In this document: in pieces, positions 47 through 40,768 of the stretch
Layout of the letters: every line of letters starts with the position of its first letter
How positions within the stretch are numbered: the first letter of the stretch is position 1
DNA from: a virus
Virus genome (UHGV): UHGV-1515682
DNA length: 40,877 nucleotides
Reading direction: 5' to 3' (one strand)
Program-made: the position numbers and the translations under genes
Notes under the pieces: model-generated
What the model was told of the DNA's origin: nothing
The model's database searches: none
What the model saw: the letters and a program-made list of their open reading frames with translations, nothing else

Positions 47-73
47 AACCCTCTGTTTTTACAGAGGGTTTTT
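47..73 (+). other. Candidate attL core / terminator-like hairpin (aaccctctgt-tttt-acagaggg + T-run)
   Basis: 8-bp stem ccctctgt/acagaggg followed by T-run; 25/27 identical to 40742-40768 at the other end of the phage gene block. Confidence 0.45.
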
Positions 74-135
74 GTTTTTATGTATTCATTTCTATTCACT
101 CTACACCATATTTTTTGGCGGTACAGGTGACGGTA

Positions 136-150
136 TTACCTTAAAGGTAT
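136..150. promoter_or_regulatory. Dyad operator-like site ttaccttaaaggtat upstream of integrase
   Basis: Matches recurring TTACC-N5-GGTAA motif (one mismatch); flanked by inverted copies of tgacggtat (128-136) and ataccgtca (159-167). Confidence 0.45.
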
Positions 151-192
151 ACTCTCATACCGTCATGAAAATGGTTTCTATACGGGTGAATT

Positions 193-1443
193 GTGCTTAC
201 CGATACAAAATTAAAGAACCTCAAGCCACAGGACAAACTGTACAAAGTTTCCGATCGTGACGGGCTGTATGTAGCTGTGCTTACGTCAGGTACGGTCTCG
301 TTTCGCTATGACTACCGTATCAACGGTCGCCGCGAAACACTGGTAATCGGGCAGTATGGGCGTGACGGTATCAGCCTGGCAGAAGCGCGAGAAGAACTGA
401 TTGCTGCAAAGAAGCTGCTTAAAGCAGGCCAGTCGCCGGCTGCGGCTAAACGTGACGGTATCAAAAAGATTCGTGGTGCCGAGACGTTTGCGGTACATAC
501 CGACAGTTATATGAAACACGTCATCCTGGCTGACAGTACCCGCGCAATGAAGCAGGCGGTGATCGACCGTGACATACTTCCGGTTCTTGGCAACAAAATG
601 ATGACTGAAATTACCACATCGATGGTTCGTGATTTGTGTGACCGGATTGTCGAACGCGGTGGTCGGGCAACAGCAGTACAGGCAAGGGAGATCATCAGCA
701 GCGTATACCGTCACGCCAATGACCGTGGTCATGGTTTGTTTAATCCTGCGGCTGACATTAAACCTTCGTCTATCGCCATATTTAAACCAAGAGAGCGAAC
801 ACTGACACCAGAAGAAATTGGCCTGTTCTTCCGCACGCTGGATGCCATTGGTGCTATGGGCACTATGAAAATGGCTTTAAAGCTGGTGCTTATCACTATG
901 GTTCGTAAAGGCGAATTCACCAACGCAACGTGGGATGAAATAGATTTTAAAAAATGGACATGGACAATTCCTTCAGACCGCATGAAGGGAAGCCGGGCGC
1001 ACGTTATTTACCTGCCTAAACAGGCTCAGGATATATTGGTCGGGTTGCAGATGTGCGCTGGTGGAAGTGAATATCTGGTTCCTGGTCGTTACAATTTCCG
1101 GAAGCCATTATCTAATGCCGCGTTGAACTCTCTGATCGACAGAACGGTGAAAATAATAAATGAAGATGGTGAGCATATTCAGGGCTTCACCGTACACGAT
1201 ATGCGCCGTACAGCCAGTACGTTGTTGCATGAGGCTGGTTATCCTTCAGACTGGATTGAAAAGGCTCTGGCACATGAGCAGAAAGGTGTGCGCGCCGTAT
1301 ATAACAAAGCGGAATACGCCAGACAGCGCGCCTACATGTTGCAGCAGTGGGCCGATATGATTGATTCCTGGATTAACGGGGAGCATACGGATCTGATTCC
1401 GTTCTCCCCGTCGAAGTTTGAGAAGTGGATGGCGGGGGAATAA
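193..1443 (+). CDS. int: Phage tyrosine integrase (site-specific recombinase), GTG start
   Basis: 416 aa ORF; C-terminal HDMRRTASTLL...YNKAEY region typical of tyrosine recombinase catalytic domain; N-terminal arm-binding-like domain; position at prophage edge. Confidence 0.9.
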   Translation: MLTDTKLKNLKPQDKLYKVSDRDGLYVAVLTSGTVSFRYDYRINGRRETLVIGQYGRDGISLAEAREELIAAKKLLKAGQSPAAAKRDGIKKIRGAETFAVHTDSYMKHVILADSTRAMKQAVIDRDILPVLGNKMMTEITTSMVRDLCDRIVERGGRATAVQAREIISSVYRHANDRGHGLFNPAADIKPSSIAIFKPRERTLTPEEIGLFFRTLDAIGAMGTMKMALKLVLITMVRKGEFTNATWDEIDFKKWTWTIPSDRMKGSRAHVIYLPKQAQDILVGLQMCAGGSEYLVPGRYNFRKPLSNAALNSLIDRTVKIINEDGEHIQGFTVHDMRRTASTLLHEAGYPSDWIEKALAHEQKGVRAVYNKAEYARQRAYMLQQWADMIDSWINGEHTDLIPFSPSKFEKWMAGE

Positions 1444-1446
1444 CGT

Positions 1447-1641
1447 TTAATAGTTCTGCTGATTTTCTTCCATCTCTGCTTCTGCTGCCAGTGATTCAAT
1501 TTTGTTTTCGAATATTGCTGACAGTGTTGCAAATTCAGCATCAGTGACAGCGGGAATTGGAACAAACCTGATCCCGCTGTGTGCAAGCATGTTTGCAGTT
1601 TCAAGGCATTTTCTTAAATCTGCTGGTGATGCCCTGTTCAT
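1447..1641 (-). CDS. Hypothetical small protein (64 aa) translationally coupled to methyltransferase
   Basis: ATG at 1641-1639 overlaps methyltransferase stop (ATGA); shorter version of ORF 1447..1761. Confidence 0.35.
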   Translation of the reverse strand: MNRASPADLRKCLETANMLAHSGIRFVPIPAVTDAEFATLSAIFENKIESLAAEAEMEENQQNY

Positions 1642-2288
1642 GCAGCACGCTCCCGCCCCTGGTTGTCTGTTGGTGACATCGGAGCATTGCTGAATGCATT
1701 TGTTAATCCGCCAATATCCAACGCGTATCCAGGGTGTAGTTGCACTGCCGGGTCTTCGCACTGATTACCCCAAACATCGAAGCCATGAGACGTCTGGCGG
1801 GCGAACAGTTCAATGCGAGAAACATCGCCTAATAATTGCACAAGTTTTTCACGAACGATATCTGGCTTTCTTGAATGCCCAAGCCGCGGTGCGATAAATG
1901 ACTGAACGATCCCTGCATTAATGCGCGTAGGTAGTTTTCCCTTTACCGCAAACAGGCAATCTTCACTATTGGCGCGAGTCATGTGTCCCATACCCATAAC
2001 CAGTTTATCTGGTTGTCGACTACCACATTTTATCCACGTGAAGCCCTTCATCGTCATCAGACGGAATCCCCAGGCTTCAACAACTTTTAGTGCTTCGAGT
2101 GGTTGTGTTGGCACCCACCACATGGCCAACAGACAGTTTTCATCGGCCAAATCCCACACAGGAAGGCGGCAGATATCCAGCACACTCATAACCGGATATT
2201 TAAAACCGGCACCGCGATTACCATCTGCGGCTTTGTCCCGGTATACCCAGGGTGGATCTGCATAGATTAGTGTGTATTTCTTAGTCAT
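1638..2288 (-). CDS. MT-A70 family N6-adenine DNA methyltransferase (orphan, no cognate nuclease seen)
   Basis: N-terminal LIYADPPW motif (DPPW catalytic motif) and overall MT-A70-like sequence; start taken at ATG 2288 (MTKKYTLIYADPPW). Confidence 0.8.
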   Translation of the reverse strand: MTKKYTLIYADPPWVYRDKAADGNRGAGFKYPVMSVLDICRLPVWDLADENCLLAMWWVPTQPLEALKVVEAWGFRLMTMKGFTWIKCGSRQPDKLVMGMGHMTRANSEDCLFAVKGKLPTRINAGIVQSFIAPRLGHSRKPDIVREKLVQLLGDVSRIELFARQTSHGFDVWGNQCEDPAVQLHPGYALDIGGLTNAFSNAPMSPTDNQGRERAA

Positions 2289-2580
2289 AAACCACCCCAC
2301 AACATCCTATGCCGCTATAGTCGCCACGGCGAAGTCCGTTACCTTTTGTGATACATTGGTCCCTGCGAACCGCGATCCTTGCACGTTCAACATCACCAGA
2401 AGCAACATCCATACACTGAAGCCAAAGGTGAGCGGCAATGCGGAATTGCCCTTTTTTCTCTCTTTCAATCGCGCGTTTTTCGATCTCTATCGCCGCAGGA
2501 GTAACGGCGACAATCTTTGACGGACTGCGCATTGAAACCTTATTCATGTGATATTTTTCAAGTCGGCTTAACTTTCTCAC
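2281..2580 (-). CDS. Hypothetical protein (99 aa), GTG start with GAGGG RBS
   Basis: ORF upstream of and overlapping methyltransferase start; no recognisable motif. Confidence 0.45.
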   Translation of the reverse strand: MRKLSRLEKYHMNKVSMRSPSKIVAVTPAAIEIEKRAIEREKKGQFRIAAHLWLQCMDVASGDVERARIAVRRDQCITKGNGLRRGDYSGIGCCGVVYD

Positions 2581-2689
2581 TTAATCCAACCCTCTCTGAA
2601 AATTAATGCCAGCAGATAAAGCCATGCTGAAACAGAGGCCAGGAATAAGTACCATCCTGACCATTTGCTCCAGTGCCTTAGCAGCGCAC

Positions 2690-2938
2690 TCATGCAGCGT
2701 TGCTCACGGGACGATATACACGTTGCTGAACAGGAGGTTTTTTACCCTGGAACTCTGCCGGGCTTGCTGCCTGACGTTCATCAAGCCAACGCTCAACTTC
2801 GTCACGGTTCCATGCGCAGCGTTTGTCAGTGATATACCAGCGTTTAGGAAATTCCCCTGCGCGCTCCATACGGTCGATAGTGCTCCATGACAGTGGCACC
2901 ACCGCCAGGAGTTCCTTCTTACCTAATGCACCTTTCAT
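2690..2938 (-). CDS. AlpA-like / excisionase-like HTH regulator
   Basis: 82 aa; LLAVVPLSWSTIDRMERAGEFPKRWYITDKRCAWNRDEVERWL resembles AlpA/Xis-type winged HTH; strong RBS; near integrase. Confidence 0.7.
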   Translation of the reverse strand: MKGALGKKELLAVVPLSWSTIDRMERAGEFPKRWYITDKRCAWNRDEVERWLDERQAASPAEFQGKKPPVQQRVYRPVSNAA

Positions 2939-2987
2939 AAATACCTCTCTTGGTTGCAGTGCGGCGCGTGTGGCGCCGCGGTGGTGG

Positions 2988-3869
2988 TTACATAGATGTT
3001 TCGTTTAATTCTTCCCGACGAACGCTGTAAACGTCGGTGGCTTTTGCCAGCAGTTCGTCATCATCTGAAAGTTTTTGTGCAATGTATTTGTAAGCCTTAT
3101 CCAGTTCGGAGACAGTGCTGTAATTCATCGCTGCGCTGGTAAAGGCCATCAGCATTTCTTCTGGATCACGGCTATCCGCTTTACGAGTTTGCTCATCAGG
3201 CTTTTTCACTGGTTTAGCGTTGATCAGACTGTTCATTCCCGCAGCAGTAGTTGTTTGCGGAGTAATGTCTCGCTCAACGCGCGGTGCCGTTTCCTGTAAT
3301 TCGTCAGGGGTGTAAACACCGAGAAGCACATCAGGAGCGTGCAGGCGAGCCCATCGTTTCGTGCAAAGATAGGCAAGCTGCTGGCGCGGATCCTGTTCCC
3401 ACAATGGAGAGTTACGCACTCCGGCTTGCGCCATACTGATGGTAAGCTCACGGGGTTCTGCTTCTCCTTTAAGAACTGCTGACACAGTTACCGTCAGATT
3501 CGGTGATTTATCTGTTTTGCCGTTAACATTCGACCAGTCACCGCTCCAGCGATAATTCAGGCGTGTCGCCAGCAGGCTGGAAGAGGATACGACCGCGTTT
3601 ACCAACTGTGCTTCGTAGCCTAACGTTCCGTTTACCACATGCGTTTTCTGCGCCACGGCGAAAGGGTTCATTCCCCACTGTGCCGCCTGCATGGTCACCG
3701 CCAGACAATCGGCAGGTTTGCCTTCAAGATGTTTCGGTACAGTCGCTTTGCTTTGTGACATCAACTCCGCGAAACGCACCAGTTGATTCATGCCCTCCGG
3801 GCTGAAGATTGCCGCAGCAGTACCTACAGTTGCACCTGGTTGTGATGTGATTGCGATATCATTGCTCAT
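2988..3869 (-). CDS. recT: RecT-like single-strand annealing protein
   Basis: 293 aa; SPLWEQDPRQQLAYLCTKRWARL segment resembles the conserved RecT C-terminal region; sits directly downstream of and coupled (ATGA) to a PD-(D/E)XK exonuclease as in recE-recT pairs. Confidence 0.6.
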   Translation of the reverse strand: MSNDIAITSQPGATVGTAAAIFSPEGMNQLVRFAELMSQSKATVPKHLEGKPADCLAVTMQAAQWGMNPFAVAQKTHVVNGTLGYEAQLVNAVVSSSSLLATRLNYRWSGDWSNVNGKTDKSPNLTVTVSAVLKGEAEPRELTISMAQAGVRNSPLWEQDPRQQLAYLCTKRWARLHAPDVLLGVYTPDELQETAPRVERDITPQTTTAAGMNSLINAKPVKKPDEQTRKADSRDPEEMLMAFTSAAMNYSTVSELDKAYKYIAQKLSDDDELLAKATDVYSVRREELNETSM

Positions 3870-4687
3870 ACGTACATATCCTGTTTACGTGCCCAGTCAG
3901 GGCGTTTAATAATTTCCACTCCGCCCCACTCATCGTTGATGCGGCATTCGTGATAGGTATTCAGATCCCGGCGGAACAGAGCGTGCCCGGCATCGACATC
4001 CTGCGCATCCAGCTCGAACACGCGTACCGGATACCGACCACAATCAATGCTTTCGCTCACGGCAAGAAAGAAAAAACCATGCGGCTGACCAGTAACCCTC
4101 ATTGCTCCTTCGCGGTACATTGCGTCCTGCACGTGGTAGCGGAATTCCTCGATGTGGCGTGCAAAACGGTCCATATCTGCAACCTTTTTCACGTCGACGA
4201 TCACGTTGTGCTCGTTCAGCCATTTATCTGGACGAATTCGGCACAACTCACCCGTCTCTTCATCGTTCCAGTACATTGATGCTTCGCAGTAACCAGGTGC
4301 TTCCAGCATCCAGCGTGCCGCCGGGTGAGCCATTGCGCTATCACGCATCAGCTCCAGTTTCCGCCACTGCTCGGCATCAAGTACCGTAATCCCCATATCC
4401 GCTACATCACGAAGAAATGCTTCTTCGTCAGCTTTACCTTGTTTCGTCCGACGATCGAATTTCGGTGAAACAATGAAGCGTTTGTCGAACTCTCCAGGCT
4501 CCAGAAGCAGACAGTGCAATGCGGTTCCCATATCCAGTGCAGACTTTTTCTCTTCGTCTTCTGGTGCTGCCTGAACCCATTTAAGAAGCGCCGGATTCTT
4601 GGCAACCATGTCCAGTTGCGACTTACTCACGCCGTCACCGGCGTGGTAGTCTTCGTTGCTGATGTCGAAATAAATTCCCGGTTTCAT
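3866..4687 (-). CDS. PD-(D/E)XK exonuclease (RecE-like/YqaJ-like recombination exonuclease)
   Basis: 273 aa; acidic/Lys motifs (IVDVKK) consistent with PD-(D/E)XK fold; operon partner of annealase. Confidence 0.6.
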   Translation of the reverse strand: MKPGIYFDISNEDYHAGDGVSKSQLDMVAKNPALLKWVQAAPEDEEKKSALDMGTALHCLLLEPGEFDKRFIVSPKFDRRTKQGKADEEAFLRDVADMGITVLDAEQWRKLELMRDSAMAHPAARWMLEAPGYCEASMYWNDEETGELCRIRPDKWLNEHNVIVDVKKVADMDRFARHIEEFRYHVQDAMYREGAMRVTGQPHGFFFLAVSESIDCGRYPVRVFELDAQDVDAGHALFRRDLNTYHECRINDEWGGVEIIKRPDWARKQDMYV

Positions 4688-4983
4688 GCCGCGTCCCTCT
4701 GTCCATCAAGCTGATCCGCCAGATCCCAGCGGGCGATAATTGCCATTGCCTCGCGCCGGTAGGCATCCATAAGTTCTTCGAACTCAGGGCTGTCTTTAGC
4801 TGCCTCCAGCACTTCCTGGCGAACTCCTTTGCCTGTTACAGCGTCAAAAGTTGAGGCCAGTTGATGAAGCCGGATGCTCTCGATCAGTTCAACTTGTCGG
4901 TCATATAACTGTTCTGACAGGCGGTAGTCCTTGTCGAATGCCAGCATGATTTTTTGAAGATTTTTCTGCTGATTAACGTTCAT
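4684..4983 (-). CDS. Hypothetical protein (99 aa)
   Basis: ATG at 4983 (MNVNQQKN) with GAGGTG RBS; ATGA coupling to exonuclease gene. Confidence 0.5.
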   Translation of the reverse strand: MNVNQQKNLQKIMLAFDKDYRLSEQLYDRQVELIESIRLHQLASTFDAVTGKGVRQEVLEAAKDSPEFEELMDAYRREAMAIIARWDLADQLDGQRDAA

Positions 4984-4990
4984 ACCCACC

Positions 4991-6025
4991 TCAATATTTG
5001 ATATACGCGTCCTGCACTTTGCCGCCAGCGATAGCAAACATTGCTTTCTGCGCGAATTCTTCGGGAATGCCTTGGGCTATCAGATCTGCGATTACTCTGC
5101 GGTTAACGGTACGGCGATGCTCTTTATCTGCAGCTCGGCGCGCTTCTTCGTCGGCGATACGCTTCTGTTCGTCAAGGCGGGCTTTTTCTGCCGCCTCTTG
5201 GCGTCGGCGTTCCTCGGCAACGGCTTCTTCTTTTTCGCGTCGTGCACGCTGCTCTGCTTCAATTCGCTGACGTTCTGCTACTTCAGCACGTGCTTTTTCT
5301 TCCGCCGCCAGGCGTGCCGCAGCCTCAATTTCAGCTTTCGCTTTTTGTTCAGCTTCGAGCCTGGCCTGTTCAGCAGCTTCCCGGCGGATATTCTCTTCTC
5401 GCTCAATGCGCGCTTTTTCCTCCGCTTCTTTGCGAAGTCGCTCCAGCTCAGCGGCTTCATGCTCGTGTTTTTGAGCTACTGCGAGTGATTCTTCCAGTTT
5501 CTGGATGGTTGAATCCTTGGCTACTCCAGCTTCTGCTGCGTACTCCTGCCAACTTTCATCAAGTGCTACTGATTTAGCCTCTTGAATTCGTTCCTGAATA
5601 TCAGATGATGGCAAGTAGTTTCCGGAGAGATCGATCACGTCAGCTAGTGCTCGCAAATTTGTCAGGCGTTGTTGCAGTGCTTCAGTGCGTAATTTCTCAG
5701 CATTTTCCCACTCGGTGAGTGGGCGGCGTACTTCATCACGAAGCCGATCGCATTCGGTTACGAAGCGTCGTAACTCTGCTTCAACTACTTTCGGCTGTTC
5801 TTTCAGGCGTTTCAGATAATCACGTCCTGGTTTTTCTACCGCTGTTTTACTTCTTGAAACCTTCGCAGCCAGAGATGCAATGCGCTTTCTGCCTTTGTCT
5901 GTGCTAATGTCAGGCACTTCATTAACACCTTCACGGATCTGCTCGAGAAACTTTTCCAGCCCTTTTTCAACGTAAATTCTTGGTGCCATGTCTGGTGTGA
6001 TTTCGATGATTGATAATTCACTCAT
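4991..6025 (-). CDS. Hypothetical protein with long Glu/Ala/Arg/Lys-rich coiled-coil segment
   Basis: 344 aa; ~120 aa of EAxRxxAEEKAR-type repeats between N- and C-terminal globular regions; DNA 5040-5500 correspondingly repetitive. Confidence 0.6.
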   Translation of the reverse strand: MSELSIIEITPDMAPRIYVEKGLEKFLEQIREGVNEVPDISTDKGRKRIASLAAKVSRSKTAVEKPGRDYLKRLKEQPKVVEAELRRFVTECDRLRDEVRRPLTEWENAEKLRTEALQQRLTNLRALADVIDLSGNYLPSSDIQERIQEAKSVALDESWQEYAAEAGVAKDSTIQKLEESLAVAQKHEHEAAELERLRKEAEEKARIEREENIRREAAEQARLEAEQKAKAEIEAAARLAAEEKARAEVAERQRIEAEQRARREKEEAVAEERRRQEAAEKARLDEQKRIADEEARRAADKEHRRTVNRRVIADLIAQGIPEEFAQKAMFAIAGGKVQDAYIKY

Positions 6026-6183
6026 TTGCTAACTTCCTCCCATATCTCGTTATCGTTGGCCACATCGCGAGCTTCTTTGCTGACGAAAGCCCACTTAATG
6101 CCTTCCTGTAAGGTGCTGAACTTCCAGCTCATGAATCCGCATGCAGTAACGCAGTACCAACCGTTGATGATTTTCCACTGCAT
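6021..6183 (-). CDS. Small hypothetical protein (53 aa), first gene of leftward early operon
   Basis: ATG 6183 preceded by GAGGT; stop overlaps next start (ATGA at 6022-6025); below 60-aa cutoff of ORF track. Confidence 0.4.
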
Positions 6184-6202
6184 AACTTGTTACCTCGGTC
6201 TG

Positions 6203-6217
6203 TTACCGTTGAGGTAA
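6203..6217. promoter_or_regulatory. Dyad operator-like site ttaccgttgaggtaa (OL-proximal)
   Basis: Perfect TTACC-N5-GGTAA; overlaps -10/+1 of predicted leftward promoter. Confidence 0.55.
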
Positions 6218-6245
6218 TAATTATGCTTATTTGGTTTGGTGTCAA
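6217..6245 (-). promoter_or_regulatory. Putative leftward early promoter (PL-like): TTGACA-17-AATTAT
   Basis: Minus-strand TTGACA (6245-6240) and AATTAT (6222-6217) with 17-nt spacer, flanked by two dyad sites 62 bp apart. Confidence 0.45.
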
Positions 6246-6264
6246 TAGATATGAGTTAAAAAAA

Positions 6265-6279
6265 TTACCCGTAAGGTAA
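6265..6279. promoter_or_regulatory. Dyad operator-like site ttacccgtaaggtaa (OL-distal)
   Basis: Perfect TTACC-N5-GGTAA upstream of putative PL -35. Confidence 0.55.
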
Positions 6280-6292
6280 TCTATCTGGCAAT

Positions 6293-6316
6293 AAAAAAGC
6301 CGCCATGAGGCGGCTT
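6293..6316 (-). terminator. Rho-independent terminator after repressor gene
   Basis: Minus-strand hairpin GCCGCC-TCAT-GGCGGC followed by T6 (A-run 6293-6298 on + strand). Confidence 0.6.
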
Positions 6317-6336
6317 ACTTGCTGAAAACTATAGTT

Positions 6337-6921
6337 TTATTGTTTGCTTTTTTCGTTCTGGTTGATGACAAATTCAATGTAACTTTCGATCTTTGCTTTC
6401 TCTGTTTCAGGTAACAATGCGTAGCGCGAGCGGTCATAGTTGATAGTTGCAGGGTCGTGCGGGTGAATCAGTAGTTCATATCCGTGACGCCCGAATGCAG
6501 ATGCAACATTCTCCAGGGTGGAAATGGAAACGCTGACCTCATTGTTTAACAGGCGGCTGATTGTCACCTGGGCTACGCCGGATGCGCGGTGAAGTTTTCC
6601 CTGTGTTGAAAGGTCGCGGCTTTCGCTCATCCAGCGTTCCAGGTTGTGAGCCGCCAGCTGGCCAATGTCGCTTGGGCCGACAGGCTGAAAACCTTCCTGA
6701 GAAAGCGAGCGATCGATATCAAGCCAGTTACGGGGTTTATTGGCGGCAGCTTCAATTTTTCGTGCAACCTGGTCGCCGATAACCTTCTTGCCAAGAGCCC
6801 AGCGGTTTACCAGATTTGCCTGAGTTCCAAGTTTTTCTGCCATCCGCGTCTGAACACCATTGAATTCACGGTCGATCAAGTCGTTGAGATTTTGCCTGCG
6901 GACGTCCTGGATACTTTTCAT
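6337..6921 (-). CDS. CI-like repressor with two HTH (XRE-type) regions and no recognisable S24 peptidase domain
   Basis: 194 aa; two XRE-like HTH stretches (…TRMAEKLGTQANLVNRWALGKK… and …ASGVAQVTISRLLNNEVSVSISTLENVA…); divergent from cro-like gene across an operator-rich intergenic region; no S24-like Ser/Lys motifs. Confidence 0.65.
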   Translation of the reverse strand: MKSIQDVRRQNLNDLIDREFNGVQTRMAEKLGTQANLVNRWALGKKVIGDQVARKIEAAANKPRNWLDIDRSLSQEGFQPVGPSDIGQLAAHNLERWMSESRDLSTQGKLHRASGVAQVTISRLLNNEVSVSISTLENVASAFGRHGYELLIHPHDPATINYDRSRYALLPETEKAKIESYIEFVINQNEKSKQ

Positions 6922-6976
6922 TTTCTGGAAAATCGCCTCATATATGAATCAGTAGATGATTCAATTTAAAGCAATA

Positions 6977-6991
6977 TTACCCAACAGGTAA
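6977..6991. promoter_or_regulatory. Dyad operator-like site ttacccaacaggtaa (OR region)
   Basis: Perfect TTACC-N5-GGTAA in repressor/cro intergenic region. Confidence 0.55.
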
Positions 6992-6993
6992 AT

Positions 6994-7008
6994 GCACCTC
7001 ATGGGTAA
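6994..7008. promoter_or_regulatory. Degenerate dyad site gcacctcatgggtaa (OR region)
   Basis: Half-site GGTAA with weak left half, 17 bp from site at 6977. Confidence 0.25.
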
Positions 7009-7021
7009 CTATCCTTGATTT

Positions 7022-7050
7022 TTGTTACCTTATGGGTGAATATTTATTAT
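7022..7050 (+). promoter_or_regulatory. Putative rightward early promoter (PR-like): TTGTTA-17-TATTAT
   Basis: -35 7022-7027, -10 7045-7050; dyad site 7025-7039 lies between the hexamers. Confidence 0.4.
7025..7039. promoter_or_regulatory. Dyad operator-like site ttaccttatgggtga (OR region)
   Basis: TTACC-N5-GGTGA (one mismatch), overlapping predicted PR spacer. Confidence 0.5.
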
Positions 7051-7075
7051 CTGAAATAAATATCAGGCAATAGCT

Positions 7076-7306: not shown

Positions 7307-7327
7307 TATCCAGCTACAACCCTCTGT

Positions 7328-13408: not shown

Positions 13409-14880
13409 AAGATACAGCGTTATCTCCTGAAGAGCAGTTGATCGAGGATATTGCAGGGTTCACTCACGATCCGCTTGGTTATGCCCTCTATGCGTTCCCG
13501 TGGGGGGAAGAGGGGACTGAACTGGCACATGCCACCGGTCCACGTCAGTGGCAGGCCGATGCGTTCCGAGAGATACGTGATCACCTGCAGAATCCAGAGA
13601 CGCGCTATCAGCCGCTTATGCTGGCACGCGCTTCTGGTCACGGTATTGGTAAATCCGCATTCATCTCAATGCTGATCAACTGGGGCATGTCCACTTACGA
13701 GGATTGTAAGGTCGTGGTGACCGCCAACACCGACAACCAGCTACGAACGAAGACCTGGCCGGAAATTATCAAGTGGTCGAACCTTGCTATCACGAAAGAC
13801 TGGTTTACCTGTACCGCTACCGCGATGTACAGCAATGACCTAGGGCACGACAAGCGGTGGCGGGCTGACGCAATACCCTGGTCTGAGCACAACACCGAGG
13901 CATTCGCCGGACTACACAACGAGCGCAAACGCATCATCGTGGTGTTTGATGAAGCGTCGAACATTGCGGATCTGGTGTGGGAAGTTGCCGAGGGTGCGCT
14001 TACGGACGAAGACACTGAGATTATTTGGGTGGCGTTCGGAAACCCTACACGTAACACCGGGCGTTTTCGCGAATGTTTCCGCAAATATAAACACCGCTGG
14101 AAAACTGCGCAGATTGACAGCCGGACGGTGGAAGGCACTAACAAACAGCAGTTGCAGAAATGGGTTGATGACTACGGGGAAGACAGCGACTTCGTTAAAA
14201 TCCGTGTGCGCGGCATATTCCCTGATGCATCTGAATTGCAGTTTATCCCTACCGGTCTTACTGATGAGGCAATGAAACGGGTGGTAACCGCTGCGCAGGT
14301 TGCACATGCTCCGGTGATAATCGGCGTTGACCCGGCATACTCCGGCGTTGATGACGCTGTGATATACCTGCGGCAGGGGCTGCACAGTAAGGTGCTGTGG
14401 ACCGGCAACAAGACCACTGACGATCTGATTATGGCAAAGCGTATCGCTGACTTTGAAGACCAGTATCAGGCTGACGCGGTGTTCATCGACTTCGGTTACG
14501 GTACCGGGCTGAAGTCAATCGGTGACGGTTGGGGGCGCACATGGCAACTTGTTCCGTTCGGTGGCGCGTCTACTGACCCGCAGATGCTCAACAAGCGTGG
14601 GGAGATGTTCAACTCATGCAAGACATGGCTGAGGCTGGGCGGCATGCTGGATGACCAGGAAACAGCGGACGACCTGTCGGCGGCAGAGTACAAAGTTCGC
14701 GTGGACGGTAAAATCGTTATCGAACCGAAGGAAGATATCAAAGAGCGGCTTGGGCGTTCTCCTGGTAAAGGCGATGCGCTACTGCTGACGTTTGCGTTCC
14801 CTGTGTCGAAGCGTCTGCGAATTCCCGGGCAGCAGAACCAGCAAGGCAAGGCGCTTACCGAGTACGATCCATATGCTTAG
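13405..14880 (+). CDS. Terminase large subunit
   Basis: 491 aa; Walker A-like ASGHGIGKS, ATPase plus nuclease regions; GTGA overlap with small subunit. Confidence 0.9.
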   Translation: MKDTALSPEEQLIEDIAGFTHDPLGYALYAFPWGEEGTELAHATGPRQWQADAFREIRDHLQNPETRYQPLMLARASGHGIGKSAFISMLINWGMSTYEDCKVVVTANTDNQLRTKTWPEIIKWSNLAITKDWFTCTATAMYSNDLGHDKRWRADAIPWSEHNTEAFAGLHNERKRIIVVFDEASNIADLVWEVAEGALTDEDTEIIWVAFGNPTRNTGRFRECFRKYKHRWKTAQIDSRTVEGTNKQQLQKWVDDYGEDSDFVKIRVRGIFPDASELQFIPTGLTDEAMKRVVTAAQVAHAPVIIGVDPAYSGVDDAVIYLRQGLHSKVLWTGNKTTDDLIMAKRIADFEDQYQADAVFIDFGYGTGLKSIGDGWGRTWQLVPFGGASTDPQMLNKRGEMFNSCKTWLRLGGMLDDQETADDLSAAEYKVRVDGKIVIEPKEDIKERLGRSPGKGDALLLTFAFPVSKRLRIPGQQNQQGKALTEYDPYA

Positions 14881-15917: not shown

Positions 15918-15994
15918 TGGCGTGGCATGCAGGATTCGAACCTGCGACCAACCGCTTAGAAGGCGGTTGCTCTGTCCAACTGAGCTAATGCCAC
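15918..15994 (-). tRNA. tRNA-Arg (anticodon UCU)
   Basis: Hand-folded cloverleaf: acceptor GTGGCAT/ATGCCAC, D-arm GCTC…GAGC, anticodon stem ACCGC/GCGGT with loop CTTCTAA, T-arm GCAGG-TTCGAAT-CCTGC, discriminator G, encoded CCA. Confidence 0.85.
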
Positions 15995-33687: not shown

Positions 33688-33758
33688 TAGTACGCTATTC
33701 ACCCCAAGTCTGCAATCTGTACAGAATTATTTAAAGGTACGTCCCTGTGCCGCCGCCG

Positions 33759-34445: not shown

Positions 34446-34721
34446 AGTGATCACCTTTGTAGTTAGGTTAATCACCACTACCGACGCCAATCGGTTGGTG
34501 GTGAACTGTGCAGGGTTGGCGTAACCGGCTACAAAGGACCCGGCGCACCTTTCGGTGCCCCCACACAGCCCACCATAGAATAGGTGCGCTTTACACATAA
34601 AAAAACCGCTTATGCGGCATATGTGCCTCTGTAGTAATCCGGGACGCCAATCCCGGCACTGGATTTTGCCAGTGCCCGATTACTATGGCACAAGAGGAGT
34701 GCGATGTAAATTTACCGTAAA

Positions 34722-34736
34722 GGTAATGATAAGCGC
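34722..34736. promoter_or_regulatory. Dyad operator-like site ttaccgtaaaggtaa
   Basis: Perfect TTACC-N5-GGTAA in divergent region between ant and 34840 gene. Confidence 0.5.
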
Positions 34737-34804
34737 GAAGAAACATTAAAATCAACCGTATTTGGTTGATTGCGTTTAACGCTTGATCACCTGAAAGCAA
34801 GATA

Positions 34805-34819
34805 TTACCTTTAAGGTAA
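34805..34819. promoter_or_regulatory. Dyad operator-like site ttacctttaaggtaa
   Basis: Perfect TTACC-N5-GGTAA 21 bp upstream of ATG 34840. Confidence 0.5.
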
Positions 34820-34839
34820 TGTTATTGTGAGGAAAAGCA

Positions 34840-35568
34840 ATGGAAGTTTTCTGGATAGTTGTTGGTGTGGTTGCGGTGATTATTTACGTTATCAACCAGA
34901 ACAAGACTAAGATCTCTGATCGTACGGTCGTTAATCATAACAAAACGATAAAGACCGAAGATGGGGAGATAACGATTAATCGTACACAGGTGATAGAACA
35001 CACCTCTACTCAGTTTCAAAAAACTGGAGGTAATGCGCCTAATATTTCCGCACCTCCTGCTTATGATAGTGCGGTAATCCAGACATATTATAAACAGCAG
35101 GAGTTAGCAAAAGAGAGGCAACTGATTCAGCCAAAGCCGTTTACAGCTGAGATTCCACCTGGAGTGTCAACGCGTCCGGCATATCATGGAAGATTCCCTG
35201 GTGATGACATATCGTCTCAGTCATCTAAAAAAGCACCTCAGGCAATATCAGAGCCAGCAAGAATACCTTCTGTATCGCCGCCAAAAGAAGAATCAGCTAA
35301 CAGAGTTTCAAGTGGTAGCAAGCAGTGCTTGCGATGCAGAATAAACCTTCCATATGAAAAATTCAGGAAATCGTCAAAAAATCCAGATGGATTGACTAAA
35401 TGGTGTGCAAGGTGTCTCGATGGCCCAAAGAATACACGCCATATGAAGTGGTGCCCAATTTGTAATGTCCGCAGAAAACGAACCAGCTTTTACCCTAATA
35501 ATCAAAATGCGGACGGCTTAATGGCATGGTGCAAAACGTGCTGGGATGAGCACAAAGCGAAACGATAG
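34840..35568 (+). CDS. Membrane-anchored protein with two C-terminal zinc-ribbon-like repeats
   Basis: 242 aa; N-terminal TM helix; repeated C-x2-C…DG…W-C-x2-C units. Confidence 0.55.
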   Translation: MEVFWIVVGVVAVIIYVINQNKTKISDRTVVNHNKTIKTEDGEITINRTQVIEHTSTQFQKTGGNAPNISAPPAYDSAVIQTYYKQQELAKERQLIQPKPFTAEIPPGVSTRPAYHGRFPGDDISSQSSKKAPQAISEPARIPSVSPPKEESANRVSSGSKQCLRCRINLPYEKFRKSSKNPDGLTKWCARCLDGPKNTRHMKWCPICNVRRKRTSFYPNNQNADGLMAWCKTCWDEHKAKR

Positions 35569-35584
35569 GCCGCTCTTGCGGCCT
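35567..35584. terminator. Hairpin between convergent genes
   Basis: aggccgc-tctt-gcggcct stem-loop overlapping stop of 34840-35568. Confidence 0.45.
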
Positions 35585-35590
35585 TTAAAT

Positions 35591-35848
35591 TTACCGGGTT
35601 TGTTTTCGTAATTGTTCGGCACAATAGTCGAGATGTGTTTGCAGATCCCGCATAGACATCTGTGAGCTGGTGACGTAGTTAATCAGTGCAGTCAGTTCGG
35701 CAAGTGGGCCATCGACATTAAATCCATCCTTATCGAGATCCCGGAGTAATTTCATCAAGTGCGATCCCTCCACCAGTGACCTGACGCCTCCCGGCGTGTG
35801 AATCCTTTCGGTAAATCCGTCTTCCAGTGGATAGTGATACTGCTGCAT
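35591..35848 (-). CDS. Small antirepressor-like protein behind a LexA box
   Basis: 85 aa from ATG 35848 (MQQYHYPLEDGF…) with GGAGAAG RBS; homologous to C-terminal domain of Bro-N protein; near-consensus LexA box 20 bp upstream. Confidence 0.6.
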   Translation of the reverse strand: MQQYHYPLEDGFTERIHTPGGVRSLVEGSHLMKLLRDLDKDGFNVDGPLAELTALINYVTSSQMSMRDLQTHLDYCAEQLRKQTR

Positions 35849-35867
35849 CTTATCTTCTCCATGCAAT

Positions 35868-35887
35868 AACTGTATGTTTATACAGTA
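35868..35887. promoter_or_regulatory. LexA (SOS) box AACTGTATGTTTATACAGTA
   Basis: CTGT-N8-ACAG with AT-rich spacer, 17/20 to TACTGTATATATATACAGTA; overlaps TATAAA -10-like hexamer on minus strand. Confidence 0.65.
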
Positions 35888-35924
35888 ACAAATAATTTGT
35901 TTGCTATCCAGCACGTTTTGCAAA

Positions 35925-35939
35925 TTACCTGAAAGGTAA
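35925..35939. promoter_or_regulatory. Dyad operator-like site ttacctgaaaggtaa
   Basis: Perfect TTACC-N5-GGTAA upstream of LexA box. Confidence 0.5.
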
Positions 35940-36043
35940 TATCTATTCGTATTTACAGCATTTCTATCCATATGTGGTTTTTCAGGTAATAGAATAACCA
36001 GATATGCGGCGCAACGGGTGCTGCGACTATCTGGAGATTTAAC

Positions 36044-38695
36044 ATGACGGTCTCAACCGAAGTTGACCACAACGAATACACTGGTAACGGAGCTACGACA
36101 TCATTTCCGTATACCTTCCGTATTTTCAAAAAATCCGACCTGGTTGTTCAGGTGTCTGACCTGAACGGGAACGTAACAGAATTGGTTCTGGATACTGACT
36201 ACACAGTAACCAATGCTGGAGGATATAATGGCGGTAATGTAATTCTGTCGAAGGCGTTGGCTAACGGTTATCATATTTCTATATCACGAGAACTCCCGGT
36301 TACGCAGGATACTGATTTGCGTAATCAGGGTAAGTTCTTCGCTGAGGTACATGAAGACGCGTTCGATAAACTGACAATGCTTATTCAAAAGTGTTTTTCA
36401 TGGATGAGGTTAGCACTTATAAAACCAAGCATTCTGGCTAACTATTATGATGCAAAAAATAATAAGATATCAAATCTAGCAAATGCCACTGACAGAAACG
36501 ATGCTGTCAATAAAGGTTATGTTGATGATCTTTTTACTGGAGGTGTAACGCCTACACCTAACAGCGCTAAAAACGATATTTTTACAAATCACCAAAGAAA
36601 GATTGTAGCTACGATGCCGCTTCTTTTTCCTGAATATGATGCGATTATGGCTGCTAACCCGTCAGCAACTTATATGTATCCTCAAGGATTCTGCGTTAGC
36701 GAAGATTTGATATACATCACTTATCCATTTGAGCCTAAACAGACGAATAATGTCGTCGCAGTATTTAACATATCTGGTATTTATCAAGGTTATTTCTATG
36801 TTCAGGCTGGCGGCCCAGGCTTCGCTGCTGAAGGAATCGTGGTTACGTCAGACTATGGCCCCAAAAAAATGTTTGTTGGTCACACAAACGGAATACTGCG
36901 TGAATTTAATATGGAGGGGGCATTATACGGAAGCAATCTGCCTCTTGTACAAAACCATGATGTTGGATTATTCAACCAGTTCAGCTACAGAAGAGGTATA
37001 TGGCTCGTTGAGCAGAATGCGCCAGAAGTAGGACAGAAAATCACAAGAACTGTACTTGCAGTGTTCGACAGTGGTTTCAATCGCCTGTCAACTATAACGC
37101 TGCCGTTACATGATGTTGGGTATGTAACTAAAAGCACCTCACCTTATGCGCCTTATTTCAACAAGCGTCAGGGTATTGCGGTAGGTGATAACTACTTTGT
37201 CTGTGGCTATGGCGGCTTCATAGCTGATGGGGCAGGAAGCGCAGGATATAACGAATATCAGGGCAGCAAAGTTTTTAACCCTGACGGTACAAAGCGAACT
37301 GAATCAATGCTTCATCCTCAGGCCATGATGGATTTAATGAAAGCCGCAGGATTGAACGTCACTCGCATAGAAAATGAAGGCGTTTGTGTTTCTCAGGATG
37401 GAAAATCCATTTATTCACTTTACATTCATCAGGAAAGAACTGGCTCTGAACCTTACAATTCAGGTTTGGTTATTTTCGAAGATTTCTCCACTGATAAAGA
37501 TGCTATCGATTTTACACCTGCATCCAGGCTTTACCGCGGATTTGATATCGATCACGCGAGCATTGGGGTATATCCCCGTAGTGCGAAGGGGATTGTTAAC
37601 CCTGTAGATGGTACGTTGTTCACTAACATGACTGAAATTCTTCGCTATATGCAGGAGATGAGTCAGAAGGCATTTAATTTTTACACAGGGACTGTCAGCA
37701 TTGCTGATATATCTGGCGTGGCAATCCCTTCCAGCACATATGTTGAAATACTGAATGCGAATAATCAGACTTTTATAGTCAACTATTATTCATCTGATAG
37801 TGGTATTAGTTATTTGGTTGCAACTAATCCTTCTGGTGACTTTGTATTTGTGCGCCAGCGACCGGCACAGTGGGCATCTAACTTAACCATTCAGCAAAAC
37901 GCAGATCCTGATACAAACCAATTAAACCGCATCACTGCATCATCATATGCCGGTGCAACTACAAACTCTCAGAAAATATTGGTCCTTGACCAGCAGGCTA
38001 CAGCTAGCGCAAATAGCTTGGTATTGGGCGGTAGTTCTTCTGTGTTTAGGTCTGCCACCACGGTGGATATTGCATGCAACAGCGACCCGACAGCATTGGG
38101 AGGAACCATACGCTGGCGGTTTTATGATACAGGTCTTCGCCCGTTTGCTGACAATACCTATAATTTTGGTCAGGCATCGTTTCGTATTAAAGACGCCTAC
38201 TTTGCAAATGCCCCAACCGTTTCATCAGATGCCACGCTGAAAACCAATCCCGAGGCAATATCAGATTTAAGTGAAATGCTTTCTTCTGATAGAGACAGCA
38301 TTCTTGATGCCTGGGGCGATATTTCTGTTGTGGCGTATCGATGGCTCGACGCTATATCCATGAAGGGCGATGGTGCCAGATGGCATTTTGGCGTCATGGC
38401 TCAGCAGGTAAGGGATGTATTCTTGGCGCACGGAATTGATGGAACCAGATTTGGCCTTCTTTGCTATGACGAGTGGGACGATATTTTTGAGCCGGTAATC
38501 GCGACTAAAGAGATTACCGATACGTCTGGTGAGTTGGTCACCGTCGAATATGACACCGGAGAACAGAGGCTGGTTAAAAAAGCGGGTAGTTCATGGGGTA
38601 TACGGCCTGACCAGTGCGCTTGGCTTGAGGCTGCATATCAGCGCCGTCGATGCGATCGTATTGAAGAGCGACTCGAACTATTGGAATCAAAATAA
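36044..38695 (+). CDS. Tailspike/tail fibre with C-terminal intramolecular chaperone (S74-like) domain
   Basis: 883 aa; conserved tail-fibre N-terminus; C-terminal SDATLKTN…HFGVMAQQV…GLLCYDEWDD resembles the autoproteolytic chaperone domain; GGAG RBS. Confidence 0.75.
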   Translation: MTVSTEVDHNEYTGNGATTSFPYTFRIFKKSDLVVQVSDLNGNVTELVLDTDYTVTNAGGYNGGNVILSKALANGYHISISRELPVTQDTDLRNQGKFFAEVHEDAFDKLTMLIQKCFSWMRLALIKPSILANYYDAKNNKISNLANATDRNDAVNKGYVDDLFTGGVTPTPNSAKNDIFTNHQRKIVATMPLLFPEYDAIMAANPSATYMYPQGFCVSEDLIYITYPFEPKQTNNVVAVFNISGIYQGYFYVQAGGPGFAAEGIVVTSDYGPKKMFVGHTNGILREFNMEGALYGSNLPLVQNHDVGLFNQFSYRRGIWLVEQNAPEVGQKITRTVLAVFDSGFNRLSTITLPLHDVGYVTKSTSPYAPYFNKRQGIAVGDNYFVCGYGGFIADGAGSAGYNEYQGSKVFNPDGTKRTESMLHPQAMMDLMKAAGLNVTRIENEGVCVSQDGKSIYSLYIHQERTGSEPYNSGLVIFEDFSTDKDAIDFTPASRLYRGFDIDHASIGVYPRSAKGIVNPVDGTLFTNMTEILRYMQEMSQKAFNFYTGTVSIADISGVAIPSSTYVEILNANNQTFIVNYYSSDSGISYLVATNPSGDFVFVRQRPAQWASNLTIQQNADPDTNQLNRITASSYAGATTNSQKILVLDQQATASANSLVLGGSSSVFRSATTVDIACNSDPTALGGTIRWRFYDTGLRPFADNTYNFGQASFRIKDAYFANAPTVSSDATLKTNPEAISDLSEMLSSDRDSILDAWGDISVVAYRWLDAISMKGDGARWHFGVMAQQVRDVFLAHGIDGTRFGLLCYDEWDDIFEPVIATKEITDTSGELVTVEYDTGEQRLVKKAGSSWGIRPDQCAWLEAAYQRRRCDRIEERLELLESK

Positions 38696-38792
38696 GACCA
38701 AATTTAGGTAATTATTATCCGTAAATGGTTTATTGTGTATGATGGACCTCATCTTCTAAGGGGGTTTTTATGCACAATAAACGGTGGTTACC

Positions 38793-39194
38793 ATGAATGG
38801 CACGGTTACGGCGGATTCACTGAATCAAGGGTTAAGCTTGGGTGCGCTGGCCTCTGTCGTCTACGGCGTTCCGCCAGAGGTGGCTCTCGGTGCTCTGGCT
38901 GGTGCGGTAATATTTGTTACCTCTGCTGTAGAGTATCCTGTTCGTCGTCGTGTACTCTTGTCGATACTCAGCTTTCTTTGTGGTCTTCTCTTTTACAAAC
39001 CAACAACATCAATTCTTATCGGAATAGCCAGCATGATACCTACCATCACGCAGGACTCTTTCGAGAAAGGGATCGTTTTCTCTGCTGGCGCATTCGTGTC
39101 AGCAATTGTCGCAGTGCGAATTGGTATATGGCTCTATCACCGTTCTGATAATCCACGCCAGTTAATTCCTGGGAGAAAAGGCGATGGTAACTAA
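38793..39194 (+). CDS. Holin-like membrane protein
   Basis: 133 aa with several hydrophobic helices; first gene of lysis cassette. Confidence 0.5.
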   Translation: MNGTVTADSLNQGLSLGALASVVYGVPPEVALGALAGAVIFVTSAVEYPVRRRVLLSILSFLCGLLFYKPTTSILIGIASMIPTITQDSFEKGIVFSAGAFVSAIVAVRIGIWLYHRSDNPRQLIPGRKGDGN

Positions 39195-39492
39195 TGAGCT
39201 TGTTTTGCTTATCACCAATGCAATTATTTGTACTGGCATAGCAATTCGCGTTGTCACATTCCGGCGTAACGGCTCTCAACATCGAAGATGGGGAGGGTGG
39301 CTTGCTTATTTCCTTATTGTTGCTGCGGCCAGTATTCCTGTTCGTGTCGCCTATGCAATCTGGTTACGTACGCCAATGGCTGTGGATTTATCTGAGGTCA
39401 TTATCAACGCTGTCATGCTTGCCGCGGTTATTAAAACACGCGGTAACGTTGTTCAGATTTTCAAAACATCGAGGTCTAAACATGGAGATTAA
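39184..39492 (+). CDS. Second holin/antiholin-like membrane protein
   Basis: 102 aa; TM segments; overlaps neighbours on both sides. Confidence 0.45.
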
Positions 39493-40111
39493 ACAATTCC
39501 AGCGAGCTGCTGGTATTAGCGAGGCTCTGGCCGCACGCTGGTTCTCGCATATAACTTCTGCGATGAAAGAGTTTGGTATCAGAAAACCCGAAGATCAGGC
39601 AATGTTTATTGCTCAGGTCGGGCATGAGTCTGGTGGCTTCACCAGGTTGCAGGAGAATTTCAATTACAGCGTCACCGGACTGGCTAACTTCGTTCGTGCC
39701 GGTCGTCTTACTCAGGGACAGGCTAACGCATTGGGTCGTCGTGCAGGCGAGCCACCATTGCCACCTGAGCGCCAGCGTGCGATTGCCAATCTGGTGTACA
39801 GCAAACGCATGGGGAACAATGCCTCTGGTGATGGCTGGAATTACCGTGGCCGCGGACTTATCCAGATTACCGGTTTGAATAACTATCGTGATTGCGGAAA
39901 CGGCCTGAAAGTGGACCTGCTGGAGAATCCTGAACTGTTGGTGCAGGACGAATACGCGGCTCGTAGCGCGGCGTGGTTCTTCTCCAGCAAAGGTTGCATG
40001 AAGTATACCGGCGATATTGCACGTGTAACTCTGATTATCAATGGTGGCAGGAATGGCATCGACGACCGGCGCGTGCGGTACATCACTGCCAGTAAGGTGC
40101 TGGCGGTATGA
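39482..40111 (+). CDS. Endolysin, glycoside hydrolase family 19-like
   Basis: 209 aa; [12 protein letters not shown] and [16 protein letters not shown] motifs typical of GH19 lysozyme/chitinase-type endolysins. Confidence 0.75.
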
Positions 40112-40590
40112 TCTGGGCATTCGCAAAAGCATACTGGAAACAGTTGGTTGTCATGGCGATGCTTGCTGTTCTGGTCATATCAGGAGTTGTTGCCTGGAAT
40201 GTGCACGGCAGTCGTCAGTACGACGCTGGGTATGCACAGGCGAAAGAAGACCGCAAAACCGAAGATGAGAGAGTTCGTCAGCACTACGAACAGGAGAAAT
40301 CGATCAATGAACGTGAAGCGCAGCAGAGGATCGACCAGGCGCGCAATGATGCTCTTGATGCTGCCGCTCGCGCTGGCCGGTTGCAGCAACAGCTCGTTGC
40401 CATCCGTGAGCAGCTCAGGCACTATAACGCCATTGTCGGCGCTGGGTCGTCAGCCGCAGACACCGGAGTTTTGCTTGCCGACGTGTTCAGCAAATCTCTC
40501 GAGAGAAATAGACAACTGGCAGAGTATGCTGACCGGGCAGCCGAAGCCGGAAGAGTCTGCGAAAAACAGTACGACACCCTGACCAGATAG
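40108..40590 (+). CDS. Rz-like i-spanin
   Basis: 160 aa; N-terminal TM helix then coiled-coil periplasmic domain; ATGA coupling to endolysin. Confidence 0.65.
40346..40582 (+). CDS. Rz1-like o-spanin embedded in +1 frame of Rz
   Basis: Lipobox [13 protein letters not shown] followed by Pro/Ser-rich short mature peptide; entirely within Rz-like gene. Confidence 0.55.
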   Translation: MMLLMLPLALAGCSNSSLPSVSSSGTITPLSALGRQPQTPEFCLPTCSANLSREIDNWQSMLTGQPKPEESAKNSTTP

Positions 40591-40741
40591 CATGGCATTT
40601 TTCATGGTACTGATTTCCGGTGACGGTATATAAAACGGTACGAGAAAAATTCATCTTTGGAAAAATGTTATCACTCAATTGGTTATGTGTGTCGTAAATA
40701 ATTGAGTGGGAATGATTTGACCCTGCACTATGAATGAACAA

Positions 40742-40768
40742 AACCCTCTGTTACTACAGAGGGTTTTT
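40742..40768 (+). other. Candidate attR core / terminator hairpin (aaccctctgt-tact-acagaggg + T-run)
   Basis: 25/27 identical to 47-73; follows last phage gene. Confidence 0.45.

Follow-up and report, generated by a model that had tools for sequence, protein, structure and literature searches.

The 40,877-nt stretch of DNA analysed here (virus genome UHGV-1515682; hereafter the window) carries a prophage of the phiV10/epsilon15 type (genus Uetakevirus), inserted at a 17-bp site, already published, where the Escherichia coli guaA gene ends, a reading to which we assign a probability of about 93%. Measured from core to core, the prophage is 40,715 bp long, and the preliminary description of a prophage of approximately 40.7 kb is borne out by junctions at both ends and by an integrase gene beside the left junction. 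The structural region (window positions 13001-38000) is 96.7% identical to phiV10 across 77% of its 25 kb, and the DNA extending from Rz through attP to int is 95-96% identical to the corresponding phiV10 region. Phages phiV10 and vB_EcoP_ZX5, Uetakevirus members found at the guaA 3' end, possess an identical 17-bp core at the same host locus, and their 44-nt spacer, hairpin, arm-motif positions and integrase are all as in the window. There is no essential difference between them and the window prophage, although their genomes are smaller (39.1-39.6 kb versus 40.7 kb), the accessory and early regions differ in part (77% coverage), and the window strain has an IS200C element beside attR. The attP region of epsilon15 (GenBank AY150271.2) has the same core and approximately 84% DNA identity to the window. 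The left junction is shared by 545 of the 5426 complete E. coli genomes. The whole system, comprising core, integrase, predicted arm sites and terminator, is already on record for phiV10, epsilon15 and ZX5.

The point at which host DNA gives way to phage DNA was established by comparing an empty E. coli site (M7424), phages phiV10 and epsilon15, the left junction of a lysogen (ECCNB12-2) and the window. The switch occurs at ATTGAGTGGGAATGATT, which comprises the last four guaA codons and the stop codon, plus the two bases that follow. In this four-way comparison attB (M7424) is arranged B-core-B', attP (phiV10, epsilon15) P-core-P', attL (ECCNB12-2, and the window from position 1) B-core-P', and attR (the window) P-core-B'; sequence identity among the four is limited to the 17-mer. 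The attR core, a phage-borne copy of the guaA 3' end at 40701-40717 (+ strand), equals the published core of ZX5, phiV10 and epsilon15. At the opposite end, the last two bases (TT) of the attL core occupy positions 1-2 (+), while the other 15 (ATTGAGTGGGAATGA, encoding guaA I-E-W-E-stop) belong immediately left of the window, giving an attL copy at -14 to 2. This outer part was deduced from near-identical lysogens, in which the attL core is complete; in ECCNB12-2, which is 99.8% identical over positions 1-400, the guaA coding sequence ends one base before the equivalent of window position 1. The true repeat was invisible in the window because the latter is cut inside the real attL core. The same 17-mer was given as both attP and attB of ZX5 by PCR and Sanger sequencing, and phiV10 and epsilon15 are credited with an identical core (PMC9782041). 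Integration took place by Campbell-type recombination between the attP core and the identical guaA 3' end, catalysed by the prophage's own arm-binding tyrosine integrase, and the guaA reading frame is restored by the phage copy of the core.

Two hairpin sequences, AACCCTCTGTTTTTACAGAGGGTTTTT at 47-73 and AACCCTCTGTTACTACAGAGGGTTTTT at 40742-40768, match at 25 of 27 positions, the differences being two loop bases only. By our own arithmetic, approximately 1.5e-4 such 27-mer pairs (two or fewer mismatches) would be expected by chance in 40.9 kb. The preliminary description took these hairpins for the att core, with strand exchange inside them and insertion into a host terminator. They are indeed direct repeats near both ends, and a composite in which the arms are joined at the hairpin can be aligned over its whole length to phage genomes with 95-96% identity. 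This composite is, however, 20 nt off the real attP (1195 versus 1215 nt), which is the 44-nt phage spacer minus the 24-nt host spacer. The left spacer (3-46, +), running from the core to the phage hairpin, is phage-derived P'-arm sequence, identical to phiV10 attP and unrelated to its host equivalent. The spacer between core and hairpin at the right (TGACCCTGCACTATGAATGAACAA, 40718-40741, +) is host DNA, namely the native 24 nt from the guaA stop codon to the terminator, and is identical to the empty M7424 site. Since the 24 nt to the left of the right hairpin are host and the 44 nt to the left of the left hairpin are phage, the switch lies upstream of both, by 24 nt in attR and 44 nt in attL. 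In addition, each hairpin retains its own loop type at every locus seen, integration also occurs in hosts with an unrelated guaA terminator (GCCCGC type), and the published core is the 17-mer rather than the hairpin (PMC9782041). Strand exchange within the hairpins is thus extremely improbable: comparison with the uninfected E. coli site puts the junctions at the 17-mer and not where a hairpin core would place them, and the phage sits in the end of the guaA coding sequence instead of in a host terminator.

Both hairpins do resemble terminators, as originally noticed. Each folds into a 10-bp stem followed by a T-run (-15.9 kcal/mol at the left, -18.2 kcal/mol at the right; z-scores of -5.4 and -4.7, respectively), and 0 of 200 shuffled sequences folded as well. 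The left hairpin (47-73, +) is phage-borne and was recovered by both the terminator scan and folding, being a GC-rich stem-loop with a T-run on the same strand downstream of a gene end. The annotations of phiV10 and epsilon15 list it as a rho-independent terminator; in epsilon15 it occupies the same place with one stem base changed to produce a G-U pair. It is conserved in phages of four host genera, namely those of E. coli, Salmonella, Klebsiella and Enterobacter. Its place in the free phage genome is after the lysis genes, and integration brings it to 44 nt beyond the guaA stop codon. The right hairpin (40742-40768, +) is host DNA, the native guaA terminator hairpin of E. coli, and is present in 5406 of the 5426 E. 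coli genomes. It was missed by the consensus terminator scan, where we suspect greedy stem extension into the A/T runs, and was recognized by its fold (10-bp stem plus TTTTTT). The loop separates the two origins: approximately 80 host copies have TACT (TATT in one variant), and all phage copies have TTTT or a variant of it, never TACT. From their structure we infer termination activity for both. In the lysogen, guaBA transcription most likely stops at the phage hairpin, which would also protect int from read-through. The native guaA terminator has been displaced by 40.7 kb to its present location behind the phage Rz gene.

Directly after the T-run of the native terminator is the left end of IS200C (40770-40877, +), identified through a match to Rfam STnc490 at 40780-40877 (102 bits; gathering score 56). 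The M7424 annotation places the IS200C tnpA gene at this same junction; the window ends before reaching it. A further hairpin at 40780-40801 belongs to this element. In E. coli 118UI, guaA, prophage, hairpin and IS200C are arranged likewise, with only approximately 39.05 kb between guaA and the hairpin.

With a second hairpin and IS200C adjoining the right-hand copy, the 27-nt sequence could be viewed as a dispersed host repeat, either REP/BIME-like or IS-associated, that happens to lie near both ends. Together with its spacer, however, the host hairpin occupies a median of one place per genome, and a maximum of three, in the 5406 of 5426 E. coli genomes that carry it, always chromosomal with the exception of one place. 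The terminator/IS200C junction is found in only 141 of the 5426 genomes, and IS-free flanks keep the hairpin. The chance of such a coincidence is accordingly negligible, and the caveat in the preliminary description that the hairpin might be a common host repeat falls away with its single-copy status. As 25/27 direct repeats flanking the prophage, the pair might instead act as a secondary recombination substrate, through homologous or slipped deletion, and so offer an alternative route of prophage loss. A scar of hairpin-to-hairpin deletion, in which the phage spacer and hairpin would run into the host flank (IS200C present or absent), was found at 0 places at a coverage of at least 80% in the 5426 E. 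coli genomes, and hybrid loops were not seen at the loci compared, which makes this route highly unlikely.

The motif GGTGACGGTAT occurs exactly at 126-136 and 40619-40629. Allowing one mismatch, there are seven copies compared with 0.40 expected, a number reached by 0 of 100 shuffled sequences; the additional near-copies are at 361, 451 and 705 (minus strand) inside int, and at 13636 and 26207. The P'-arm putative arm-type repeat at 126-136 (+), with the 10-mer GTGACGGTAT at 127-136, recurs in all but one of 26 distinct P' arms (25 of 26) and has the same offset, +141 from the core start, as a protein_bind feature labelled 'integrase' in epsilon15. Two putative arm-type copies inside int, at 361-371 and 451-461 (both +, CGTGACGGTAT), correspond to epsilon15 annotated sites at +376 and +466, and the P-arm repeat at 40619-40629 (+), 81 nt upstream of the core, to another integrase-binding annotation of that phage. 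Epsilon15 has four GTGACGGTAT 'integrase' sites, all predicted annotations, at the same offsets as the window, and the earlier suggestion that the repeat is a putative arm-type site agrees with their identical sequence. An inverted imperfect copy, ATACCGTCAT at 157-166 (-), and an inverted copy inside int at 705-715 (-) are each found in 16 of 26 distinct P' arms. The first of these had already been noticed but placed at 159-167; ATACCGTCA is at 157-165, two bases to the left.

The positions of these repeats are strongly conserved. Every one of the 68 distinct P arms carries its motif at -81, as do the five named phages, and the P'-arm motifs at +124, +359 and +449 from the core end recur in approximately 25 of 26 distinct P' arms and at the same positions in the five named phages; phages of E. 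coli, Salmonella, Enterobacter and Klebsiella all keep these positions. When 11-nt windows of the 5' part of int are ranked by conservation, the copies at 361 and 451 fall in the top 4%, with third-position conservation judged from 25 related sequences only, and their conservation may be partly at the protein level, as they also encode Arg-Asp-Gly-Ile. Judged by sequence, the motif is likely to be an arm-type site bound by the integrase N-terminal domain, for which GTGACGGTAT at -81, +141, +376 and +466 from the core start, together with the inverted copies, would provide the binding positions.

The integrase itself (193-1443, +) is a tyrosine recombinase with an arm-binding N-terminal domain. 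It belongs to phrog_1 and contains Arm-DNA-bind_3 (PF13356), Phage_int_M (PF22022) and Phage_integrase (PF00589) domains, that is, arm-binding (P4-type), core-binding and catalytic domains, all above the Pfam cut-offs. Recombination activity was reported for the ZX5 integrase, which is 98% similar to that of the window (PMC9782041). An 82 amino acid product encoded at 2690-2938 (-) matches phrog_66, 'excisionase and transcriptional regulator' (E-value 2e-16), and is a candidate excisionase or HTH regulator, the former role being suggested by this match. At the other end, the last phage gene before attR (40108-40590, +) specifies an Rz-like spanin (Pfam DUF2514; Rz-like in phiV10 and epsilon15). 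In attP sites of the lambda type, a core is accompanied by arm-type sites recognized by the N-terminal domain of the integrase, and IHF and Xis assist. The window resembles these in its arm-binding integrase domain, in a motif present in both arms and both orientations, and in the candidate excisionase nearby. Unlike lambda, its integrase has an arm-binding domain of the P4 type (Arm-DNA-bind_3), transcription of int runs away from attP, the int coding sequence itself contains two of the motif copies, and the arm sites are predicted ones. A search of both arms with the strict IHF consensus WATCARNNNNTTR gave no match, again in contrast to lambda; the IHF features of epsilon15 are predictions.

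Some phages and islands, such as P4, P22 and HP1 at tRNA genes, integrate into the 3' end of a gene and bring a replacement 3' end with them. As with these elements, the core of the window prophage duplicates the end of its target gene, which stays intact, and a phage-borne terminator replaces the displaced host one. The target here is, by contrast, a protein-coding gene, and the homology is discontinuous, consisting of the 17-bp core, an unrelated spacer and a 25/27 hairpin, with the hairpin likeness restricted to E. coli. To examine the flank in other hosts, genome contigs were searched with the 15-mer ATTGAGTGGGAATGA; the end of guaA proved to be conserved into unrelated phyla, and among the matches listed the useful ones were Raoultella, Citrobacter, Tatumella, Enterobacillus and one Enterobacteriaceae MAG. 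The phage hairpin matches the host guaA terminator in E. coli only. Because of the Citrobacter and Raoultella evidence and the non-E. coli host flanks in IMG/VR, the guaA terminator native to the epsilon15 host probably belongs to the unrelated GCCCGC type. No match was obtained when a GCCCGC-type host flank was searched against the phage collection.

How the phage and E. coli terminators came to resemble one another may be explained in two ways. They may have converged, two unrelated intrinsic terminators sharing a stem by chance: terminators are under common constraints (a GC-rich stem and a T-run), the core-to-hairpin spacers are unrelated and of different lengths (44 versus 24 nt), and the phage stems showed no compensatory changes. 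Set against this, ten identical stem pairs with flanking AA and a T-run have a chance, by our estimate, of approximately 1e-5 to 1e-6, the same 17-bp core is upstream of both hairpins, and a likeness to the tail of the Citrobacter-type host terminator is also seen in the phage tail TTTTTGTTTTTATGT. We regard convergence as rather unlikely. Alternatively, and we advance this tentatively, the Uetakevirus attP terminator could be a captured or commonly descended copy of the Escherichia-type guaA terminator.

For the delimitation of prophages, these results carry a caution, in that direct repeats near the ends need not be att sites; here it is the 17-bp core spanning the guaA stop codon, and not the hairpin pair, that marks the true boundaries. 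If capture or common descent of the terminator were correct, its retention in phages of Salmonella, Klebsiella and Enterobacter would reflect the need to substitute for whichever terminator integration displaces, so that guaBA transcription ends and int is insulated, and the discontinuous homology would be left over from an older and longer att homology or from aberrant excision. The E. coli-specific likeness between the phage and guaA terminators is possibly undescribed, and would be a minor point on the evolution of the attP module.

The right arm of the window was joined to its left arm at the hairpin, and the resulting composite was aligned to free phage genomes. It aligned over its full length with free Uetakevirus genomes, at 94–96% identity to phiV10, EC.W1-9, O157 typing phages 9 and 10 and vB_EcoP_ZX5, and at 84–85% to epsilon15 and SPN1S, while phiV10 matched the structural half of the window at 96.7% identity with 77% of the length covered. 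Because of these two matches the window, as judged by alignment, is a prophage of the phiV10/epsilon15 type, which bears out the prophage proposed in the preliminary description. It encodes a tyrosine integrase with an arm-binding domain (193–1443; Pfam Arm-DNA-bind_3, Phage_int_M, Phage_integrase) and a candidate excisionase (2690–2938, minus strand; phrog_66). A prophage-borne tRNA-Arg (anticodon TCT; 15918–15994, minus strand) sits between the genes for terminase and portal, and O157 typing phages 9 and 10 also have an annotated tRNA-Arg (TCT). On the same strand, at 34494–34675, a C4 antisense RNA (79.5 bits) adjoins isrK (76.8 bits), a pairing typical of P1/P7-type antirepressor immunity regions.

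The left (47–73, plus strand, AACCCTCTGTTTTTACAGAGGGTTTTT) and right (40742–40768, plus strand, AACCCTCTGTTACTACAGAGGGTTTTT) hairpins are identical at 25 of 27 positions, the sole differences being two loop bases, exactly as first described. In both, a T-run follows a 10-bp stem (-15.9 kcal/mol, left; -18.2 kcal/mol, right), and none of 200 shuffles folded as well as either. These hairpins had been proposed as the core sites of attL and attR. We lined up four sequences, namely the empty site of E. coli M7424 (order guaA, hairpin, IS200C, yfgI), the attP of phiV10 and epsilon15, the attL of lysogen ECCNB12-2 (99.8% identical to window 1–400), and the right end of the window. The only sequence common to host and phage was the 17-mer ATTGAGTGGGAATGATT, which takes in the four final codons of guaA (I-E-W-E) together with the stop codon and two further bases. 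It lies upstream of both hairpins, and the switch between host and phage DNA occurs here, not at the hairpins.

The attR core occupies 40701–40717, with phage DNA up to the core and host DNA from 40718, where a native 24-nt host spacer (TGACCCTGCACTATGAATGAACAA) precedes the right hairpin. In ECCNB12-2, guaA ends one base before the position matching window 1; the window therefore opens on the final two bases of the attL core, followed by a 44-nt phage spacer (3–46) identical to that of phiV10 and then by the phage hairpin. From core to core the prophage measures 40,715 bp. The first sign of a misplaced join was that the aligned stretch measured 1215 nt in the phage records versus 1195 nt in the composite, a 20-nt discrepancy which arises from the unequal phage and host spacers. 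A published study of vB_EcoP_ZX5 gives this 17-mer as the core of both attP and attB, which it confirmed by PCR and Sanger sequencing, and names it as the attP of phiV10 and epsilon15 too (PMC9782041); the att system is one already described for these three phages. Exact copies of the 15-mer ATTGAGTGGGAATGA, which specifies the GuaA C-terminus and stop codon, occur in genomes of many unrelated phyla (genome-contig loci L005–L124), including cyanobacteria, Firmicutes, Bacteroidota and archaea, the location at the guaA end being established for Enterobacterales loci only. The full 17-mer was present in 24 of 121 among the ATTGAGTGGGAATGA matches listed, of which there are at least 121 in genome contigs.

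That both hairpins resemble terminators agrees with their sequences. The left one is phage DNA, which the phiV10 and epsilon15 records both annotate as a rho-independent terminator after Rz/Rz1, and the right one is, by sequence and position, E. coli's own guaA terminator; in IS-free genomes it is placed between guaA and yfgI, which are convergent. The possibility that the host hairpin is a common dispersed repeat was rejected, since 5406 of 5426 complete E. coli genomes carry this hairpin with its spacer, with a median of one place per genome and a maximum of three. Once integrated, the phage hairpin sits 44 nt past the restored guaA stop codon, and int starts 120 nt beyond it. In the lysogen, it would most likely end guaBA transcription and keep it out of int; the displaced host terminator now comes after the phage lysis genes.

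Scanning IMG/VR with the 17-mer gave 119 junction or attP loci. The host-side loop was TACT throughout, with one exception (a TATT variant), and the phage-side loop was TTTT or a variant thereof (TTTG; one extra T in locus L239; AATT in BUCT554); no hybrid host/phage loops were found among these 119 loci. The phage hairpin of locus L240 keeps identical stems around an AAAA loop, which looks like a flipped TTTT. At several attR loci the phage arm is joined to hosts with an unrelated guaA terminator (AAGCCCGCGTAACTGCGGGCTTTTTT), a type that follows guaA in Citrobacter sp., Raoultella terrigena and Tatumella; a matching attB hairpin is therefore unnecessary for integration. No hairpin-to-hairpin deletion scar was present in the 5426 E. 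coli genomes, searched with and without IS200C. At the attR locus L233, which has an E. coli-type flank, TGACCCTGCACTATGAATGAA is followed by another hairpin (CCTCCGGCATAGCCGGAGG) in place of the usual guaA terminator, and this may be another insertion or replacement.

The extreme right of the window (40780–40877) matches Rfam STnc490 (102 bits), and in M7424 the IS200C transposase gene comes next at the equivalent place. Comparison with IS-free flanks set the start of IS200C at 40770, directly after the six Ts of the terminator. This junction occurs in 141 of the 5426 genomes, whether the prophage is present or absent, and the GC-rich hairpin at 40780–40801 is part of IS200C rather than of the att site.

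The proposed arm-type motif GGTGACGGTAT is present exactly at 126–136 and 40619–40629, as reported; its inverted copy, ATACCGTCA, is at 157–165, two bases left of its earlier placement. With one mismatch allowed there are seven copies versus 0.40 expected, a number reached by none of 100 shuffles. Epsilon15 (GenBank AY150271.2) carries four "integrase" protein_bind features, each GTGACGGTAT, at -81, +141, +376 and +466 from the core start. The arm-type reading agrees with this purely predicted annotation of putative sites, because the window motif sits at exactly these offsets (40620–29, 127–136, 362–371 and 452–461). Inverted copies lie at 157–166 and 705–715. All 68 distinct P arms have the -81 copy, and about 25 of the 26 distinct P' arms have the three downstream copies, with the same positions in phiV10, epsilon15, SPN1S, BUCT554 (Enterobacter) and BUCT711 (Klebsiella). 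Two copies fall within int, encoding Arg-Asp-Gly-Ile, and rank in the top 4% of 11-nt windows for conservation over the gene's first 540 nt across 25 related sequences, third codon positions included; this is suggestive only.

The window also contains 16 copies of the palindrome TTACC-N5-GGTAA (up to one mismatch) versus 0.65 expected, and none of 100 shuffles reached 16. They are located at 136–150, 6203, 6265, 6977, 7025, 7362, 9284, 9346, 12780, 12798, 15700, 16316, 33673, 34712, 34805 and 35925, several being paired 18–93 nt apart. Just ahead of int, one lies between the two arm-type sites, and a repressor-like gene is found at 6337–6921 (minus strand). The palindrome resembles an operator for a phage regulator. 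At 126–166, a long imperfect inverted repeat is made up of direct and inverted arm-type copies flanking the palindrome TTACC-N5-GGTAT. Epsilon15 has an RNase III site annotated over the equivalent stretch; a structured int leader is an equally good reading.

The phage hairpin is kept across Uetakevirus attP modules in every host genus seen. The spacers between core and hairpin are unrelated in phage and host, and the phage T-run tail (TTTTTGTTTTTATGT) resembles that of the Citrobacter-type terminator. Common descent of the phage and E. coli guaA hairpins looks more likely than convergence, and the phage copy could have come from capture of a host terminator or be the leftover of a longer att homology. 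That E. coli alone, among the hosts seen, has a guaA terminator matching the phage hairpin is one point perhaps not previously on record.
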